Shown here one piece after another: positions 1-62,207 of a DNA stretch of 64,000 nt. The DNA lies in assembly GCA_036676985.1 (NCBI GenBank), contig JAKFBU010000014.1:1-64000 (forward strand). The letters run 5' to 3'. Below the pieces are notes generated by a model. The model searched no databases, was not told the DNA's origin, and was given only the letters and a program-made list of their open reading frames with translations. Position 1 is the first letter of the stretch. Each line of letters opens with the position of its first letter. This DNA comes from Candidatus Sericytochromatia bacterium (GTDB lineage Bacteria; Cyanobacteriota; Sericytochromatia; S15B-MN24; UBA4093). The position numbers and the translations under genes were made by a program.

Positions 1-15
1 CCCAAAAACACCAAT

Positions 16-42
16 CCCCGCCGAGCTTTCGCCTGGCGGGGG
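16..42 (-). terminator. Rho-independent terminator of the candidate large ncRNA
   Basis: Minus strand reads CCCCGCCAGGCGAAAGCTCGGCGGGG followed by ATTGGTGTTTTT. Confidence 0.65.
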
Positions 43-650
43 TTGCTGCTTCGCGCGCGGTCCGACGTCAATCCATCGGCGGGCAATGCCCCGGAGAGTG
101 CCCTCTCCTCGCAGCGCGTCGCGGGTTTCTCAAGCCGCGTTCCGGGAAGTTTCCTTCCCACCGAATCCTGCCGGCACCTCTTGCGAGGCCTCGACCTGAC
201 CCGTGGCACGTTACGGTGTGCGCCGTGCTACCGCCCCGGAGAGCCGTAGACGAGCAAGTTCCGGTCGCGAAACCTTTCCTTGCCTCTCCTGCCGTCCCGC
301 CGGATACTTGCGCGTCCGACGACCCAGGAGGGAGGGGCCTTCCGGTGTCGATCCACCGGTGCGCTTGCAACGCAGGGGACTTGCGCCCCCGGTACTTCCT
401 CGCGAGAGTGTGTCCACTCCCTTTCGGGTCCCTTAACGGTTCCCTCGATCTCGCTTCGCAGGTTCTACCCTGGTTATCTCGATCGAAGCCTCTTCTGCAG
501 TTTGGCCCTCTGGCTCTCCCCCGGTTGGTTCGAGACTGCCACCCTACCGGCCGGTTACCCAGCTTTCGAGCTTTACCCGGGATTCTCTCCGCCGCTTACG
601 CGTCGTTCCCCCTCACCGGGTGCCGTCGTGTCCTCCGGAACGCGACGACC
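16..650 (-). ncRNA. Candidate large ornate structured RNA (~630 nt), family not recognised
   Basis: No credible ORF. Many hairpins with GAAA/GCAA loops on the minus strand (144-159, 177-188, 301-318, 375-389, 419-428). Long-range helices 635-646/135-146 and 512-519/238-245. Bounded by a promoter and a terminator. Confidence 0.6.
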
Positions 651-655
651 TATTA

Positions 656-684
656 ACCATACCGCATCCCGCGGCGCTTGGCAA
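656..684 (-). promoter_or_regulatory. sigma70-type promoter for the candidate ncRNA
   Basis: TTGCCA-17 nt-TATGGT on the minus strand; same -35 hexamer as the tRNA-Pro promoter. Confidence 0.6.
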
Positions 685-772
685 GCTTTTGGTTAAAAAA
701 AGATTTTAGAAAGCTTATGATCGCTCAGCAGCGCCGGTGACCGAGGCCCGATCGCGTCAGTCACAACGCCGC

Positions 773-15876: not shown

Positions 15877-15896
15877 ATCTATCCGCTTGCGCGGAG

Positions 15897-15970
15897 TCGG
15901 AGCGGCGGGATTCGAACCCACGACCCCCACTACCCCAAAGTGGTGCGCTACCAAGCTGCGCTACGCCCCG
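15897..15970 (-). tRNA. tRNA-Pro(GGG), CCA not encoded
   Basis: CGGGGCG/CGCTCCG acceptor stem; anticodon arm CCACT-TTGGGGT-AGTGG; GGTTCGAATCC T-arm. Confidence 0.95.
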
Positions 15971-22156: not shown

Positions 22157-23473
22157 ATGAAGAGCTCCCGGATTCCTGGCTTCTATCGACTCAGCATCGA
22201 CGAGCGCATCGACAAGCTCGCCGAGACCTTCGACCTGACCCGCGAGGAGATCGACGCCCTCCGCTCGCAGGGCGCCCTCGAGGTCGCCCAGGCCGACAAG
22301 ATGATCGAGAACGCGGTCGGCATCTACTCGTTGCCCATCGGCGTGGCGCTCAACTTCCTCATCAACGAGAAGGAATACATCGTGCCCATGGCCATCGAGG
22401 AGCCCTCGGTGGTGGCCTCCTGCTCGTTCATGGCCAAGCTCGTGCGAGAGTCGGGCGGCTTCCGGGCCGGCAGCACCCGGCGCGTCATGATCGGCCAGAT
22501 CCAGGTGGTGGGCTGCTCGGACATGCGCGCAGCCAAGAACCGGGTCCTCGACTCCAAGACGGAGATCCTGGAGGCGGCCAACGCGCTGGCCCCCAACATG
22601 GTCAAGCGCGGCGGCGGGGCCATCGACCTCGAGGCGCGCCTGCTCAACGACAACCCGCTCGCCGAGTTCAGCCCCATGCTGGTGCTGCACCTCCTGATCG
22701 ACACCCAGGACGCCATGGGCGCCAACACCATCAACACGATGGTCGAGGGCATCGCGCCCATCATCGAGCAGCTCACGGGCGGCCGGGTCTACCTGCGGAT
22801 CCTCTCCAACTACACCGACACCTGCGTGGCCTGGGCCACCTGCAAGGTGCCGCCGCATGTCCTCGAGACCGAGGAGCACACGGGCGAAGAGGTCGTCGAG
22901 GGCATCGTGAAGGCCTACGAGTTCGCGGCCTCCGACATCTACCGTGCGGTGACGAACAACAAGGGCGTCATGAACGGCGTCGACGCGGTCGTGATGGCCA
23001 CGGGCAACGACTGGCGCGCCATCGAGGCGGGCGCTCATGCCTGGGCCGCCCGCGATGGGCAGTACGGCCCCATGGCCCACTGGTCCAAGGACGCGGAGGG
23101 CAATCTGATCGGCAAGCTGGAGCTGCCCATGCCCGTGGGCATCGTCGGCGGCTCCATCCAGATGCACCCCATGGCCCAGGTGGCCCTGAAGTTCCTGCGC
23201 GTGCGCACGGCGCGCGAGCTCGCAGAGGTCTGCGTGGCCGTCGGTCTGGCGCAGAACATGGCGGCCCTGCGGGCGCTTGCGACCGTGGGCATCCAGCGCG
23301 GCCACATGGCCCTGCATGCCCGCTCGGTGGCCGTCACGGCCGGCGCCCGCGGAGAGCTCGTCGAGCTCATCGCCCAGGCCATGGTCGAGGCCCAGGACAT
23401 CAAGGTGGCCCGCGCGGCCGCGCTGCTCAAGGAGTACGCGGCGGGCGGCCTGAGCACCTCGGAGCCGTCGTGA
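22157..23473 (+). CDS. mvaA: Class II HMG-CoA reductase
   Basis: EEPSVVA, DAMGANTIN, NKGVMNG, GNDWRAIEAG, GIQRGHMALH. Confidence 0.95.
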   Translation: MKSSRIPGFYRLSIDERIDKLAETFDLTREEIDALRSQGALEVAQADKMIENAVGIYSLPIGVALNFLINEKEYIVPMAIEEPSVVASCSFMAKLVRESGGFRAGSTRRVMIGQIQVVGCSDMRAAKNRVLDSKTEILEAANALAPNMVKRGGGAIDLEARLLNDNPLAEFSPMLVLHLLIDTQDAMGANTINTMVEGIAPIIEQLTGGRVYLRILSNYTDTCVAWATCKVPPHVLETEEHTGEEVVEGIVKAYEFAASDIYRAVTNNKGVMNGVDAVVMATGNDWRAIEAGAHAWAARDGQYGPMAHWSKDAEGNLIGKLELPMPVGIVGGSIQMHPMAQVALKFLRVRTARELAEVCVAVGLAQNMAALRALATVGIQRGHMALHARSVAVTAGARGELVELIAQAMVEAQDIKVARAAALLKEYAAGGLSTSEPS

Positions 23474-24450
23474 CCTCCACCCGCGCCCAGAGCGTCGTCG
23501 AGCGCGCCCCGGCCAAGATCATCCTGGTCGGCGAGCATGCGGTCGTTTACGGGCATGCGGCGATCGCCCTCCCCTTCCCGCCCCTCTCGGCCCGCGGTAC
23601 GGCCGTGCCGGCCGAGGAGGGCGTCGCCATCCGCTCGGACCGCTACTCGGGCATGGTGGCGCGCCTGAAAGAGGGCTACGAGGTGCCGACGCCCTTGAGG
23701 CCCGCGGCCGAGGCCGTGCGCGGCTCGCTGGAGGCCATCGAGCGGGCCGGGGGCACGATCCAGCCCTTCGACCTCTTCCTCGAGAGCGACATCCCGTCGG
23801 GAGCGGGGCTCGGCAGCAGCGCGGCCGTCGCGGTGGCCGCCGTGCGCGCGACCTTCAAGTTCCACGGGCGGGAGGTGCCACCGGCGCTGTTGCGCTTGCT
23901 TGCGACCCGGGCCGAGGCGATCGCCCACGGCACGTCGTCGGGCCTCGACCCGACCACCGTGGCCGCCCACGGCCCCATCCGCTTCATCCGCGAGCATGCG
24001 CCCGTCGATCTGAACGTGGTCCAGCCCTTCGGCCTGGTGGTCGCGAACTCGGGCGTGTCGGCCTCGACGGCCCGCATGGTCGCCCGGGTCAAGGAGCGCA
24101 AGGAGTCCTCGCCCGAGGCCGAGCGGCAGCTCGCGGAGCTCGGCGAGCTCGCCGAGCGCTCCGTGCGCCTTCTCGAGCACGCGGAGTACGCGGAGCTCGG
24201 CGAGGTCCTCGACACGGCGCATGGGCTCCTGGGGGCGCTCGGGGTCTCGACCGATCGACTCGACGCCATCGTGCAGGCCGCCCGCGACGCGGGCGCCTAC
24301 GGGGCCAAGCTCTCGGGGGCGGGCGGGGGCGGCTGCGCGATCGCCCTGGTTCCCATCGAACGCCTCATGCCCGTGGCCGACGCCATGCGGACAGCCGGTG
24401 CCGTCCAGGCCTGGCCGACCCAGTACCTCATCGAAAGCGACATCTCATGA
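23470..24450 (+). CDS. mvk: Mevalonate kinase
   Basis: PAKIILVGEHAVVYG, PSGAGLGSSAA, KLSGAGGGG; GTG start overlaps the mvaA stop. Confidence 0.9.
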   Translation: MTSTRAQSVVERAPAKIILVGEHAVVYGHAAIALPFPPLSARGTAVPAEEGVAIRSDRYSGMVARLKEGYEVPTPLRPAAEAVRGSLEAIERAGGTIQPFDLFLESDIPSGAGLGSSAAVAVAAVRATFKFHGREVPPALLRLLATRAEAIAHGTSSGLDPTTVAAHGPIRFIREHAPVDLNVVQPFGLVVANSGVSASTARMVARVKERKESSPEAERQLAELGELAERSVRLLEHAEYAELGEVLDTAHGLLGALGVSTDRLDAIVQAARDAGAYGAKLSGAGGGGCAIALVPIERLMPVADAMRTAGAVQAWPTQYLIESDIS

Positions 24451-25475
24451 GCTTCATCGAAGAACGCAAGCAAGACCACATCCGCCTCTGCCTGGAGGAG
24501 GACGTCCAGTCCCAGACGACGCGGACCGGCTTTTCGCGCTATCACTTCCTGCATCAGGCGCTGCCCGAGATCGACTTCGCCGAGGTCTCGACCGAGACCG
24601 TCTTCCTGGGCCGGCGCGTGGCCGCACCCTTGCTCATCTCCTCGATGACGGGCGGCCCGGAGCTCGGGCGCACCATCAACCGCAACCTGGCGCTCGCTGC
24701 CCAGCGCACCAACGTGCCCATGGCCCTCGGCTCGCAGCGGATCATCCTCGAGCATCCCGAGAGCCTGGAGAGCTTCCGGGTGCGGGACATCGCCCCGGAT
24801 GTGCTGCTGGTCGGCAACGTGGGGGCCGTCCAGCTCAACTACGGCGTGGACGTGGCCGCCCTCAAGCGCCTCAAGGACGCCGTGGGCGCCAACGCCATGT
24901 ACCTGCACCTCAACCCGCTGCAGGAGGTCATCCAGCCCGAAGGCGACACCAACTTCAAGGGCCTCTACGACAAGATCGCCGCTGTCTGCCGGGAGCTCGG
25001 CGTGCCGGTGCTCATCAAGGAGGTCGGCAACGGCATCGCGCCCGACACGGCGCGCCGCATGGCCGAAGCCGGGGTCGCGGCCATCGACGTCTCCGGAGCG
25101 GGCGGCACCTCGTGGTCCCGCATCGAGGGGAAGCGATCGCCCGACGTCCTCGCCCGCACCATGGGCGAGACCTTCGGGGACTGGGGCCTGCCGACCGCCG
25201 AGGCCCTGAGGCTCTGCCGCGCCGAGCTGCCCGCGATGCCCCTGGTGGCCTCGGGCGGCATCCGCTCGGGCGTGGACATGGCCAAGGCGCTCGTGCTCGG
25301 GGCCGACATGACGGCCCTCGCCATCCCCTTCCTGGAGGCCGCCACAGAGAGCGCAGAGGCGGTGCAGCTCGTGCTCGAGCGCCTCATCACCGAGCTCAAG
25401 ATCGCCATGTTCTGCCTCGGGTGCCGGACCATCGAGGAGCTCAAGGCCACCGATCGCCTCATGGAGGTGCGCTGA
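24447..25475 (+). CDS. fni: Type 2 isopentenyl-diphosphate delta-isomerase
   Basis: RKQDHI, MTGG, HLNPLQE, KEVGNG, GAGGTSW. Confidence 0.95.
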   Translation: MSFIEERKQDHIRLCLEEDVQSQTTRTGFSRYHFLHQALPEIDFAEVSTETVFLGRRVAAPLLISSMTGGPELGRTINRNLALAAQRTNVPMALGSQRIILEHPESLESFRVRDIAPDVLLVGNVGAVQLNYGVDVAALKRLKDAVGANAMYLHLNPLQEVIQPEGDTNFKGLYDKIAAVCRELGVPVLIKEVGNGIAPDTARRMAEAGVAAIDVSGAGGTSWSRIEGKRSPDVLARTMGETFGDWGLPTAEALRLCRAELPAMPLVASGGIRSGVDMAKALVLGADMTALAIPFLEAATESAEAVQLVLERLITELKIAMFCLGCRTIEELKATDRLMEVR

Positions 25476-26452
25476 TGCCCGGCACCGCGACGGCCCGCGC
25501 CCATTCCAACATCGCGCTGGTCAAGTACTGGGGCAAGCGTGACGCGGCCCTGAACCTGCCGACCAACGGCAGCCTCTCCATGACCCTGGACGGGATGCAC
25601 ACGACGACCACCGTGACCTGGGACCCGGCCCTCGGGGCGGACGAGGCGGTGGTGAACGGCAAGACCATCACGGGCGCCCCGCTCGCGAAGCTCGCGACCT
25701 TCCTGGACCTGGTCCGGGGCCTGGGAGCGTCGGGATTCGCGCGCCTGGAGTCCGTGAACAACTTCCCGACCGCCGCGGGCCTCGCGTCGTCGGCCTCGGG
25801 CTTCGCGGCCCTCGCCCTCGCCTCGACGGCGGCCGCCGGGCTGGACCTCGATCCGCGGGCGCTCTCCCTCCTCTCCCGGCAGGGCTCGGGGTCGGCCTCT
25901 CGTTCGATCTTCGGGGGCTTCGTAGAGTGGTTCAAGGGCGATCGCGCCGACGGCCAGGACTCGTATGCCGAGCCCATCCTGGCGCAAGACGAGTGGGACG
26001 TGCGCATGCTCGTGGCCATCCTCGAGCCCGCCCCCAAGCCCGTGTCGAGCCGCAGCGGCATGACGCTCACGACCCAGACCTCGCCCATGTACCCGGCGTG
26101 GCTCGAGACGGTGGGCGCGGACCTCGCCGCCATGCGCGCGGCCGTCCTCGCGCGGGACTTCGAGCGGGTGGGCGAGGTGGCGGAGGCCAACTGCCTCAAG
26201 ATGCACGCCACCATGATCACCACGCGGCCCACCATCCTCTACTGGCAGGCCCCGACGGTCTCCCTCATGCACCGGGTCATGGCGCTGCGGGCCGAGGGCC
26301 TTTCTTGCTACTTCACCATCGATGCCGGTCCGAACGTCAAGGTGCTCTGCCGGCCCGCCGACGAGGCCCGGCTCAAGGCCGAGCTCCAGGCGGTGCCCGG
26401 GGTCCAGGAGATCCTCACGTGCCGTCCCGGCCCAGGAGCCACGCTGATATGA
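25475..26452 (+). CDS. mvaD: Diphosphomevalonate decarboxylase
   Basis: NIALVKYWGKRD, GLASSASG, GSGSASRS, TIDAGPN. Confidence 0.95.
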   Translation: MPGTATARAHSNIALVKYWGKRDAALNLPTNGSLSMTLDGMHTTTTVTWDPALGADEAVVNGKTITGAPLAKLATFLDLVRGLGASGFARLESVNNFPTAAGLASSASGFAALALASTAAAGLDLDPRALSLLSRQGSGSASRSIFGGFVEWFKGDRADGQDSYAEPILAQDEWDVRMLVAILEPAPKPVSSRSGMTLTTQTSPMYPAWLETVGADLAAMRAAVLARDFERVGEVAEANCLKMHATMITTRPTILYWQAPTVSLMHRVMALRAEGLSCYFTIDAGPNVKVLCRPADEARLKAELQAVPGVQEILTCRPGPGATLI

Positions 26453-58393: not shown

Positions 58394-59527
58394 ATGGCCC
58401 TTTTGACCGCCACCCCCGCGCTCGATCGCTACATGGCCCTGCCGGGCATCTACCGCACCTCGTCCGAGCACGACGCAGCCTTTCTGGCGGCCATGCGCGA
58501 GGCCCTCTCGTGGCACCTCGAGCACCACGCGACCTACCGCGAGCTTTGCCGCCAGGCGGACTTCGGACTGGAGGATCTTCAGACGATCGCCGACGTGCCC
58601 CGGGTGCCCCACGTCTTCGTCAACGTCTTCAAGACCCACGAGCTCCTCTCCATCGACCGCTCGGAGGTGGCCCTGAACCTCACGTCCAGCGGCACCACCG
58701 GCCAGAAGAGCCAGATCTTCTTCGACCGGGCCTCGCTCGCGCGCGGGCTCGCCATGGTGGACCGCGCACACGAGGAAATGGGCCTCTACCGCCCCGATCT
58801 GCCTACCAACTACGTGATCTTCGCCTACGACCCCAACGAGGCCAAGAACGTGGGCACGGCCTACACGGACTCGAACATCACCAAGTTCGCGCCCAAGAAG
58901 CGCTCGTATCACGCGCTGCGCTGGGACGAGGCCGCAGCGGCCTTCACCTTCCGAGAGGCCGAGACCCTGGCCGTCATCCAGTCCTACGCCGAAGAGGGCC
59001 TGCCCGTCCGCTTTCTGGGCTTCCCCGCCTTCCTGCACCGCCTGTTGAGCCGCCTGAAGGCCGAGGGCAAGCGCTACGAGCTGGGTCCCGACTCCTATGT
59101 CATGACGGGCGGCGGCTGGAAGAAGTCCGAGAGCGAGCGCATCGATTTCGAGGACTTCCTGGCCGAGGTGGAGGACGTGCTCGGCATCCCCGGGGGCAAC
59201 GTGCGAGACGGCTACGGCATGGTCGAGCACGGCGTGCCCTATCTCCAGTGCGAGCATCATCGCTTCCACGTGCCGACCTTCGCCCGGGCCTACGCCCGGG
59301 AGGTGGGAACGCTCGAGGTCCTGCCCCCGGGAGAGGTGGGCTTCCTGCACCTGGTGACGCCGTACAACCTGGCCATGCCGGCCCTCAGCCTGCTCACGAG
59401 CGATCTGGCCACCATCGAGACGGACTGCCCCTGTGGGCGCGAGACGCCGACCATCTCCCTGCAGGGCCGGGCCGGGACCCGCAAGAACAAGGGCTGCGCC
59501 ATCTCGGCCGCCCAGCTGCTGAAGTAA
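58394..59527 (+). CDS. LuxE-like acyl-protein synthetase
   Basis: LTSSGTTG, TGGGWK, DGYGMVE, GRAG...KGC. Confidence 0.85.
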   Translation: MALLTATPALDRYMALPGIYRTSSEHDAAFLAAMREALSWHLEHHATYRELCRQADFGLEDLQTIADVPRVPHVFVNVFKTHELLSIDRSEVALNLTSSGTTGQKSQIFFDRASLARGLAMVDRAHEEMGLYRPDLPTNYVIFAYDPNEAKNVGTAYTDSNITKFAPKKRSYHALRWDEAAAAFTFREAETLAVIQSYAEEGLPVRFLGFPAFLHRLLSRLKAEGKRYELGPDSYVMTGGGWKKSESERIDFEDFLAEVEDVLGIPGGNVRDGYGMVEHGVPYLQCEHHRFHVPTFARAYAREVGTLEVLPPGEVGFLHLVTPYNLAMPALSLLTSDLATIETDCPCGRETPTISLQGRAGTRKNKGCAISAAQLLK

Positions 59528-59537
59528 GGATCACGCC

Positions 59538-62207
59538 ATGCGCGAACACTACGTCTTTGGCCGAACCCTCACGGGCGAGTTGACCGACGAGCAGGCGCTC
59601 GACATCCTGCGGGAGGCGCACCGGCGCAAGGAGCGCATCGCCAAGGCCCCGATCGATCGCCTCCTCACCATCCTCGAGCGGGCCTCCAGACTCTGGGCGG
59701 ATCCGGCCTACGAAGGGCGACGCCTGGTCATGGAGCGCATCCCCGCGCAGATCGGCTTTTCGCCCGAGATGGTCGCCGAGGAGCTCAAGGGCCTGGAGAT
59801 GGCCCTTTCGCGCGCCTACCTGGAAAGGAAGCTCTCCGTGGAGCTCGGCTCGCGGGAGGCCCTGGAGATGTGGCAGGGCGGCAACGGGGCGGCCTTCAAG
59901 CGGGCGCTGCCGCGCGGCGTGACCCTTCACGTGTCGAGCGGGAACGTCTTCACGGGCGGCATCCTCAGCATGATCGAGGGTATCCTCACCAAGAACGTGA
60001 ACCTCTTGAAGGCCGCGAGCAAGGCCCCGCTCTTCCCCTTGCTCTTTGCCAAATCGCTCAAGGAGTCGGATCCCGAGGGCCTCATCGCGGACTCCATCGC
60101 CATCCTCTCCTGGTCCGGCGGCAAGAGTCAGTTGCATCGCGTCTTCCAGCAGCATTGCGACGCCATCGTCGTCTGGGGCGGCGAGGAGGTCGTGCGCGAG
60201 TACCGCGAAGGCCTTTCCCTCAAGACGCACCTGGTCGAGTATGGCCCCAAGGTCTCCTTTGCCGCCGTCTCCGCGGAGCGTCTGGACCACCCGGACGTGC
60301 CCGACCAGCTTGCGCGCTCCATCGCCCTGTGGGACCAGAATGCCTGCTCGAGCCCGCAGGTGCTGTACCTGGAGGATGCCTCCGCAGACGGAGCCCCCAC
60401 TGAGCATTTCGTCCGGGCACTCGCCCGGGCGCTCGACGCGGTGCAGGCCGAGCTGCCCCAAGGCCCGCTCGATAGGCAGGAGCGGGCCGAGGTGACCAAG
60501 GAGCGCGAGATGGCGCGCTTCGAGATGGCCATGGGCACCTCCCGCCTCGTGACGCCGGGCCAGGCCCCCTACTGGACGATCGTGGTCGAGCAGGACCCAG
60601 CCTTCAAGCTTTCGCCGCTCTTCCGGACGATCTACGTCAAGCGGGTGATGGACCTCCTGGAGCTGCCCGGTCACCTCGCCGAGTACGCGGATTATCTGCA
60701 GACGGCGGGCGTCTCGGCCCCCCCCGAGCGCCTCTTCCCCCTGGCGCAGCGCCTCTTGGACCAGGGCGTGCTGCGCGTAACACCGCTCGGCGAGATGAGC
60801 GGGGGCACGCCCGGCGAGCCGCACGACGGCCTCATCGCCCTCAACGAGCTCGTGAAGTGGGTCTCTTTGGGCTTCGCGGAGGCCGACAGGCGCTTCGACG
60901 GAGCCGAGTGGCTCACGGCCGATGAGCTTGCGGCCCTCTCGTGGGGCCGCCGCGAGCGGCTCGTCAAGGAGCTCGCGCCGCTGGCGCCCTACCATCGCGA
61001 TCGCCTGAAGGACGTGCACCTGGAATCGCCGGAAGACTGGGATCAGGTGCCCGTCATGGAGCGCGAGGACGTAGCGAAGCACACGCCCCCGCAGGGCACG
61101 GGCCTCTTCACGGGCGATCCCCAGGGCGGCCACTTCCTGCGCAGCGGCGGCTCGACGGCTTCGCCCAAGCTCTCGGTGTTCTCTTACGAGGATTACGAGG
61201 ACGACATGTGGCGCGCGGCGCGCGGGGCCTACGCCGTCGGCCTGCGCCGGGGCGATCGCGTGGCCAACCTCTTCTACTCGGGCGGCCTCTACGGCTCCTT
61301 CCTCTCGGTGAACCGGGCGCTGGAGATCGTGGGCTGCAACAACTTCCCGTTCACGAGTTCGGTGCCCCCCGAGCAGCTGCCGGAGTTCCTGCGGATCTAC
61401 GGTATCGATACCCTGATGGGCCTGCCTTCGTGGCTTCTGCGGGTCTTCGACGCCATCAAGGCCGATCCGTCGGGGATCCGCATCCGCAAGGTCTTCTACA
61501 CCGGAGAGCACCTCTATCCCTCCGAGCAGGAGTACCTCAAGGAGACGTTCGGGGTCGAGGTCATCGCCTCCATCGGCTACGGCACGGTGGACGCGGGCCC
61601 CATCGGCTTCCAGTGCCCGTACAGTCACGGCGGCGTGCACCATGTGCACACCGATCACCAGTTCGTGGAGATCGTCGACCGCCGGACCAAAGAGCGTGCG
61701 GGATCCGGTGGGATCGGCGAGGTGCTCATCACCAACCTCAATCGCCGCCTGATGCCCCTCATCCGCTACAAGATCGGGGACCTGGGCCGCTGGGTCGAGG
61801 GCGACTGCCCGTGCGGCCGCTCCATGCCCCGCTTCGAGCTCCTGGGCCGCAGCGACGACGTCCTCATCGTGGGGGGCCACAATATCCCCTACGCCGAGTT
61901 CCAGCTGGCCGCGAGCGGGATCCCGGGGCTGAGCTCCATGGTCCAGCTGGAGACGGGGGTCGAGGACCATCGCGATCGCCTCACCGTCCGCGCGGAGCTC
62001 GTGGGGGCCAAGGAGGACGCGGATACCGCGGCCCTCGCGCAGGTGCTCAAGGACGGCATCCTCGCCAAGGTCCCCGTGCTCCGGGACGCCTACCAGAAGG
62101 GGGTCCTTGCGAACCTCGATTTCGAGGTCCTGCCGGCGGGCGCCTTGCCGCGCCTGGAGCGGACGGGGAAGGTCCGGCGCATCATCGACACGCGGATCAA
62201 GGTGTAG
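59538..62207 (+). CDS. LuxC-like acyl-CoA reductase fused to a PaaK-like ligase domain
   Basis: PRGVTLHVSSGN, VWGGEE, YGPKVSF, DQNACSSPQ; C-terminal RSGGSTASPK, GYGTVD, PLIRYKIGD. Confidence 0.85.
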   Translation: MREHYVFGRTLTGELTDEQALDILREAHRRKERIAKAPIDRLLTILERASRLWADPAYEGRRLVMERIPAQIGFSPEMVAEELKGLEMALSRAYLERKLSVELGSREALEMWQGGNGAAFKRALPRGVTLHVSSGNVFTGGILSMIEGILTKNVNLLKAASKAPLFPLLFAKSLKESDPEGLIADSIAILSWSGGKSQLHRVFQQHCDAIVVWGGEEVVREYREGLSLKTHLVEYGPKVSFAAVSAERLDHPDVPDQLARSIALWDQNACSSPQVLYLEDASADGAPTEHFVRALARALDAVQAELPQGPLDRQERAEVTKEREMARFEMAMGTSRLVTPGQAPYWTIVVEQDPAFKLSPLFRTIYVKRVMDLLELPGHLAEYADYLQTAGVSAPPERLFPLAQRLLDQGVLRVTPLGEMSGGTPGEPHDGLIALNELVKWVSLGFAEADRRFDGAEWLTADELAALSWGRRERLVKELAPLAPYHRDRLKDVHLESPEDWDQVPVMEREDVAKHTPPQGTGLFTGDPQGGHFLRSGGSTASPKLSVFSYEDYEDDMWRAARGAYAVGLRRGDRVANLFYSGGLYGSFLSVNRALEIVGCNNFPFTSSVPPEQLPEFLRIYGIDTLMGLPSWLLRVFDAIKADPSGIRIRKVFYTGEHLYPSEQEYLKETFGVEVIASIGYGTVDAGPIGFQCPYSHGGVHHVHTDHQFVEIVDRRTKERAGSGGIGEVLITNLNRRLMPLIRYKIGDLGRWVEGDCPCGRSMPRFELLGRSDDVLIVGGHNIPYAEFQLAASGIPGLSSMVQLETGVEDHRDRLTVRAELVGAKEDADTAALAQVLKDGILAKVPVLRDAYQKGVLANLDFEVLPAGALPRLERTGKVRRIIDTRIKV

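Follow-up and report, generated by a model that had tools for sequence, protein, structure and literature searches.

A candidate large structured non-coding RNA at the edge of a Sericytochromatia contig

Introduction

To our knowledge, known bacterial non-coding RNAs (ncRNAs) longer than 500 nt number only a handful. Those examined to date, namely RNase P RNA, group II introns and the OLE, ROOL and GOLLD RNAs, have each proved either to be catalytic or to build unexpected assemblies. Here we describe a candidate for a further large bacterial RNA, a predicted minus-strand transcript of ~645 nt at the left end of a 64,000-nucleotide stretch of DNA from Candidatus Sericytochromatia bacterium (GenBank assembly GCA_036676985.1, contig JAKFBU010000014.1, positions 1 to 64,000; hereafter the window). 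Our best reading is that this element would represent an RNA family not yet described.

The OLE RNA is roughly 600 nt long, and its gene neighbourhood carries genes for OLE-associated proteins. Passages of PMC11332333 and PMC12265935 place it in Gram-positive extremophiles, where it localises to the membrane with partner proteins, and part of PMC12286853 reports that it forms homo-oligomers. The candidate RNA resembles OLE as a stand-alone bacterial ncRNA of roughly 600 nt with many stem-loops. Unlike OLE, it is found in a genome of 65–73% GC beside genes for PhnA, a DoxX protein and peptidases, a comparison of settings in which the OLE partner proteins were not searched for by name. The ROOL and GOLLD RNAs are described in sections of PMC12286853 as large ornate RNAs that fold into ordered particles free of protein, and that sit in phages or prophages, often near tRNA islands. 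They share with the candidate RNA a large, ornate architecture and a biochemical role that is unassigned; by contrast, the locus described here has housekeeping-type chromosomal neighbours, lies 15.2 kb from a tRNA gene and matched no phage record. The raiA motif RNA is much smaller than ~645 nt. It is presented in portions of PMC11706538 and PMC12968392 as a structured RNA that is abundant, stands alone and folds unaided. Whereas the raiA motif occurs in over 2,500 species, the RNA of this study was seen in four close assemblies and has no match in Rfam.

Folding and transcript ends

Energy minimisation of the minus strand gave a minimum free energy of −314.1 kcal/mol, compared with −280.7 (sd 5.45) for dinucleotide shuffles (z −6.1; 0 of 20 shuffles as good). 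A second run, with 20 shuffles for each strand, returned z values of −4.5 (minus strand) and −2.0 (plus strand), and ten segments of the window folded on both strands as 20 controls ranged from +1.4 to −2.9. The minus strand folded more stably than the plus strand by 45 kcal/mol (−312.9 vs −267.9 kcal/mol), as expected if G-U pairs matter. The purine fraction of the RNA strand is 0.592, and only one of 1254 windows elsewhere was that high. Seven GNRA-capped hairpins with at least 3 bp, four of them with at least 4 bp, were counted on the minus strand, versus two and none on the plus strand. In the longer class (4 bp or more) a background of 0.45 per 650 nt applies, and a count of four was reached by none of the 1254 sliding windows elsewhere and by 4 of 1000 shuffles. 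Taken together, the folding energy, the strand asymmetry, the purine excess, the GNRA enrichment and the substitution pattern set out below point to a structured RNA on the minus strand. Depletion of AUG on the RNA strand was also considered and set aside as not significant (1 observed vs 2.7 expected, P = 0.2).

The predicted fold is summarised in Table 1. A preliminary description of this DNA had listed five GNRA-capped hairpins (144–159, 177–188, 301–318, 375–389 and 419–428), all of which are present at those places, together with a long-range helix between 512–519 and 238–245 that is recovered in the minimum-energy fold. As a separate observation, the 11-mer GCCCCGGAGAG occurs twice (88–98 and 233–243). 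In the transcript, GGAGAG could serve as a partner for either copy, whether locally (108–103) or over a long range (519–514), so that alternative pairing is possible.

The preliminary description had also placed a promoter, TTGCCA-17-TATGGT, on the minus strand at 684–656. A promoter scan listed it at the same place, as one of two sites in 1–1500, compared with 0.0 in 50 shuffles. The surrounding DNA (601–900) has a GC content of 0.555–0.57 in a window of 65–73% GC. A plus-strand promoter-like site, TTAAAA-17-TATGAT (693–721), sits inside the AT-rich spacer that also holds the RNA promoter and is probably a by-product of AT-richness. At the 3′ end, the hairpin proposed earlier as a terminator (16–42) holds up as a strong structure (−23.1 kcal/mol for 46..1), with a U run (4–8) that starts some bases past the stem.

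Table 1. Features of the proposed RNA and its promoter, listed in the direction of transcription.
Feature	Position	Strand	Remarks
AT-rich stretch	686..716	−	Directly upstream of −35; putative UP element by resemblance
−35 hexamer TTGCCA	679..684	−	Promoter scan; P0003 has no changed codon over 679–693
−10 hexamer TATGGT	656..661	−	Promoter scan; P0003 change at 657 keeps T1, A2 and T6
Proposed RNA, ~645 nt	4..650	−	Start predicted at 647–651; end predicted in U run 4–10
5′ terminal hairpin, 7 + 4 bp, loop CGGA	622..649	−	Mean pair probability 0.93 and 0.86; P0003 change 626, A-U to G-U
GUAA-capped hairpin, 5 bp	550..563	−	P0003 change 553, G-C to G-U
Long-range helix closing central domain	512..519 (5′ strand) + 238..245 (3′ strand)	−	Minimum-energy fold; pair probability 0.86–0.92
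Variable hairpin	426..444	−	Sole length difference between the window and two relatives; P0002 and P0003 shift frame equally here
7-bp hairpin, loop GACA	404..421	−	Probability 1.00; P0003 change 420, G-U to A-U
GCAA-capped hairpin, 6 bp	375..390	−	GNRA scan and fold
6-bp hairpin, loop GAUCGA (353–348)	342..359	−	Probability 0.99; self-complementary GAUC/UCGA in loop
Most conserved core	300..399	−	No changed codon in three relatives, where only amino-acid-altering changes are visible
Long interrupted hairpin capped by GCAA (309–312)	282..338	−	Inner 8-bp helix, probability 0.91; includes the CGGACGC-GCAA-GTATCCG hairpin of the preliminary description
Long GCAA-capped hairpin, 6 + 4 + 5 bp	162..203	−	Probabilities 0.98–1.00; P0002 change 179, A-U to G-U
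7-bp GAAA-capped hairpin	143..160	−	Best supported helix; P0002 changes at 148 and 155 together, U-A to C-G
Terminator stem, 7 bp G+C and inner 3 bp with GAAA loop	16..41 (41–35/22–16)	−	Probability 1.00
U-rich tail	4..14	−	Can pair with A-rich tract 43–51; similarity among relatives ends here

Antisense reading frames and relatives

On the pyrimidine-rich plus strand, frame 3..656 is open for 217 codons, and in three assemblies the antisense of the RNA is annotated as hypothetical proteins of 203–251 aa (P0001–P0003). A plus-strand protein gene, as called for P0001 (251 aa), would account for both the open frame and the predictions across the region; we find it hardly conceivable, since it is already contradicted by the frames themselves. 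A pyrimidine-rich antisense strand is expected to leave a plus-strand frame open anyway, and stop codons number 0–2 per frame on the plus strand and 2–5 on the RNA strand (three frames each). Open reading frames (ORFs) in the interval have a third-position GC content (GC3) of 0.58–0.75, versus 0.89–0.91 in four neighbouring genes; GC across the codon positions of the plus-strand protein frame is flat (0.69/0.60/0.65), and Pfam returned no family for the three ORFs tested in the interval (3–656 +, 68–370 − and 280–696 +). The view that some 600 nt here lack a credible ORF is borne out by the GC3 pattern, unlike that of real genes, and by the empty Pfam result.

The three predictions also run in different frames and through each other's stops. 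By tblastn, P0002 follows window frame 1 over 1–444 and then frame 3 to 551, while P0003 follows window frame 2 over 86–445 and then frame 1 to 693, and the relatives' frames cross window stop codons at 247–249, 197–199 and 434–436. Because P0002 and P0003 shift frame equally at ~430–445, one length difference, in a small hairpin, accounts for both. The switching of frames and the crossing of window stops indicate that the DNA is conserved and that no reading frame is; the conserved coding frame that would have spoken against an ncRNA was thus looked for and not found. From this comparison of frames, P0001–P0003 are taken to be spurious predictions, translations of the same DNA.

The relatives were found by using these junk antisense frames as probes in protein collections: frame 3..656 retrieved P0001 and P0002, and frame 280..696 retrieved P0003. 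P0001 has two differences, and its contig (18,931 nt) also carries the M20 peptidase gene. Additional relatives were found neither with P0003 as query nor by phmmer of P0002 against 1.84 billion representatives, and of 10 alternative ORFs from this region, looked up as exact sequences in the protein collection, 0 were present.

Similarity among the relatives spans the DNA from the promoter −35 hexamer to the U tract and then stops, such that the boundaries of the proposed RNA coincide with the limits of conservation. Over the promoter region (652–693), 6 of 14 codons differ in P0003, versus 5 of 69 over 445–651 in the RNA body (Fisher P = 0.002). When P0001 and P0002 were compared codon by codon for whether one and the same DNA could encode both, 4 of 31 codons were compatible in the flank beyond the U tract, versus 134 of 140 within the window. 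Offsetting the flank by −4 to +4 left its compatibility at background. Given that similarity ends at the U tract, the element is unlikely to lead into a conserved gene downstream, which speaks against the possibility, raised earlier, of a long leader reading into a gene left of the window. The same sharp end, with at most 49 nt of the 64,049-nt contig remaining left of the window, suggests that strain-variable or repeated DNA adjoins the RNA gene. Genes for tRNA and tmRNA occupy a similar position where islands integrate. A 16S rRNA leader was considered separately and rejected: by eye, the 34 P0001 residues that extend past the left edge did not resemble the reverse complement of the 16S start, and the flank is unconserved.

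These flanks bear on the possibility that the element acts in cis within a longer messenger, as either a 3′ extension of the transcript of the upstream phnA gene or the leader of a gene past the left contig edge. A terminator scan found no terminator-like site between the phnA stop (773) and the RNA promoter, the terminator at 41–4 is non-canonical, and a downstream gene could lie out of view past the end of the contig, all of which would fit such a messenger. Against it stand the element's own promoter with its conserved −35 hexamer, the unconserved left flank, and a scan for PhnA in which 80 loci of other bacteria (several phyla, <=85% identical, no synteny) carried nothing similar to the RNA. 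Complementarity between the RNA and the ribosome-binding region of phnA (330–315; 13 of 16 positions) is likewise at chance level, being equalled by 47 of 300 shuffled RNAs, and antisense regulation of phnA through this site was rejected for that reason. On balance we judge a part of a longer messenger to be quite improbable.

Base changes among the relatives were inferred as minimal codon changes from amino-acid differences. Of 34 substitutions so obtained, 17 fall at unpaired positions, 9 leave a pair intact and 8 disrupt one. In 5000 simulations with the same substitution numbers, transition share and visibility filter, 15.6 (sd 2.9) pair-breaking changes arose, so that such changes are avoided at P = 0.005. 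Changes at 179, 239, 553 and 626 yield G-U pairs if the minus strand is the RNA but would be mismatches if the plus strand were; that at 239, in P0002, lies in the long-range helix 519–512/245–238. In the hairpin at 160–143, P0002 shows a compensatory pair of changes, and its loop is altered from GAAA to GCGA, still a GNRA sequence. Bins 300–399 and 500–549 lack changed codons. The hairpin at 342–359, too, shows no visible change in the relatives, and its GAUCGA loop is, as speculation, a candidate kissing loop.

The main rival to a functional RNA is neutral conservation among near-identical strains, in which the element would be a non-functional GC-rich spacer or the remnant of a decayed gene, and its hairpins a by-product of composition. 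The neighbouring M20 peptidase is 97–100% identical within its 90% cluster, the element is narrowly distributed, several inferred changes break predicted pairs, and GC-rich controls reach a z of −2.9, as a spacer would allow. A spacer does not readily account for the avoidance of pair-breaking changes, for the compensatory pair and the GNRA-to-GNRA loop retention, for a purine content and a GNRA count that are extreme for the window, or for the 45 kcal/mol strand asymmetry. Nor would it be expected to diverge far less than the promoter spacer beside it and to lose similarity sharply at the U tract. We therefore regard a mere spacer as unlikely, if a serious competitor.

Several results nonetheless weigh against a functional RNA. 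The relatives are so close that conservation by itself says little; silent changes are invisible to the codon-based inference, and positions 269 and 473, changed in both relatives, were counted twice. Only one compensatory pair, that in hairpin 160–143, is clean, and changes at 242, 483, 252 and 176/177 break pairs in helices predicted with a probability of at least 0.7, although the pair at 242 (changed in P0002) is broken only if its partner 515, at a silent codon position where a change is invisible, stayed the same. The structure itself is a single-sequence energy minimisation, predicted from the window alone. An outer long-range pairing of 635–646 with 135–146, proposed in the preliminary description, exists as a 12-nt complementarity (10 nt exact), but the helix is unsupported and was rejected as the dominant fold: it overlaps hairpin 160–143 by 3 nt, forcing it costs ~27 kcal/mol, and its ensemble probability is 0. 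The competing local partner suggested for the 5′ end (599–610) amounts to about 6 base pairs. A consensus terminator scan of 1–1500 found 0 sites; the gap between stem and U run explains why the hairpin at 16–41 was missed.

The same holds for how far the RNA reaches, its DNA having been seen in only four closely related assemblies, the window included. Among ~15 billion predicted proteins, just three translations of the RNA region were found. A translated-antisense scan with six seeds, covering one genome each of 185,579 species, gave 357 seed stretches, none of which was confirmed. The RNA had no counterpart by nhmmer and blastn in the 80 phnA loci (1.24 Mb; best E 0.2 over 34 nt), and blastn in a distant mode with 1–700 had no match in plasmid or phage records (phage n = 50,697).

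Search for known families

A cmscan of the window against 4227 Rfam families returned only a tRNA-Pro, with 0 matches in 1–700 at the gathering score, so the check recommended in the preliminary description matched no known family across the interval. At E values up to 10, positions 1–1200 gave seven matches, all of 17–19 bits against cut-offs of 40–103 and thus at chance level. The models of OLE, ROOL, GOLLD, RNase P RNA and group I and II introns had no Rfam match even at that threshold, and no tmRNA was found by ARAGORN or by Rfam. Full-text literature searches returned no description of this RNA; the supplementary tables of discovery papers could list candidates.

These searches bear on whether the element belongs, though highly diverged, to a known class (RNase P RNA, tmRNA, group I introns or group II introns), or whether it serves as guide or scaffold for a mobile element that has its protein gene past the contig end. 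RNase P RNA, tmRNA and the introns share with it the size range, GNRA-capped hairpins, long-range helices and a purine-rich strand, and its position at the border of strain-variable DNA, where assemblies break, would suit a mobile element. None of these models scores, however; the strong U-tailed hairpin separates the RNA from the left side, the left flank differs between relatives, and no second copy was found in the 64-kb window (best chance match 24 nt, E 0.036). For guide RNAs of the HEARO/IscB type, too, no model matches here, the upstream neighbour is PhnA, and the downstream side runs off the contig. Whether as a divergent known RNA or as the RNA of a mobile element, this explanation is, in our estimation, very improbable. 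The uncharacterised large structured RNA of the preliminary description remains the preferred reading, supported by the negative Rfam result, the absence of a conserved frame, the boundaries, the folding and the substitutions.

Genomic surroundings

The nearest upstream gene, on the same strand as the RNA, encodes a 70-aa PhnA/YjdM protein (985–773). Beyond it lie genes for a DoxX protein, an M28-like peptidase (the 521-aa neighbour, identified through the ESM Atlas) and an M20 peptidase. PhnA proteins 91–93% identical to that of the window exist on other contigs of roughly 91 kb. The only tRNA gene of the window, tRNA-Pro at 15896–15970 (ARAGORN; 15897–15970 by Rfam), is 15.2 kb away, and an earlier remark that ornate RNAs often lie near tRNAs therefore does not apply to this locus.

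Just upstream of the phnA ribosome-binding site is an inverted repeat (1014–1060) that has 19 bp of perfect pairing around a loop of 9 nt, and for which all four Rfam matches are at chance level. P0009, a relative's over-extended PhnA prediction, shares residues with the window frame across it; the repeat seems to be conserved on this comparison, and could be the terminator of the upstream gene or a regulatory hairpin. From the repeat to the DoxX gene, 1061–1519 (~460 nt) contains no ORF bearing the coding GC3 signature, and a Pfam search of frame 1296–1757 found no family; the 1061–1519 stretch may be a decayed gene. Elsewhere, the ranges 22157–26452 and 58394–62207 hold genes of the mevalonate pathway, which encode HMG-CoA reductase and a protein of 743 aa that includes a diphosphomevalonate decarboxylase part, as well as a LuxE/LuxC-like acyl-protein synthetase and reductase pair in which the reductase is fused to an AMP-binding domain. 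The window also encodes UvrD and Znu-type transport.

Discussion

We consider it probable that the left end of the window encodes a genuine stand-alone structured ncRNA, with no particular activity implied. In the model that we propose, a separate minus-strand transcription unit would produce an ncRNA of ~645 nt, from a sigma-70-type promoter to a U-tailed hairpin. The transcript may fold into a compact, multi-domain particle in which a 5′ hairpin is followed by a central domain and then by GNRA-capped hairpins that form a 3′ domain. The central domain would be closed by helix 519–512/245–238 around the invariant core at 300–399, and contacts between GNRA loops and helices would be expected to hold the particle together. 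Such an RNA might act in trans as a folded object, whether by serving as a scaffold for proteins, by assembling with itself or as a ribozyme, rather than by base-pairing with messengers. This trans-acting particle is our best guess, read from the predicted anatomy.

A bolder proposal, which we hold to be rather unlikely, is that the RNA is the founding member of a new ornate class of bacterial RNAs, unrelated to OLE, ROOL, GOLLD, raiA and the universal RNAs. It would then be a compact particle that folds by itself and is either self-assembling (for example through the GAUCGA loop at 353–348) or catalytic, and its gene would mark an edge of strain-variable DNA.

If only a single species proves to carry the RNA, its wider importance is modest. 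The detour through junk ORFs as a means of finding relatives of a non-coding region may itself be reusable. If the reading as a structured RNA is true, a GC-rich and apparently uncultured bacterium would have supplied structural biology with a new target, a large RNA unrelated to those known, and RNAs of this kind would routinely be hidden beneath spurious protein predictions in GC-rich genomes.

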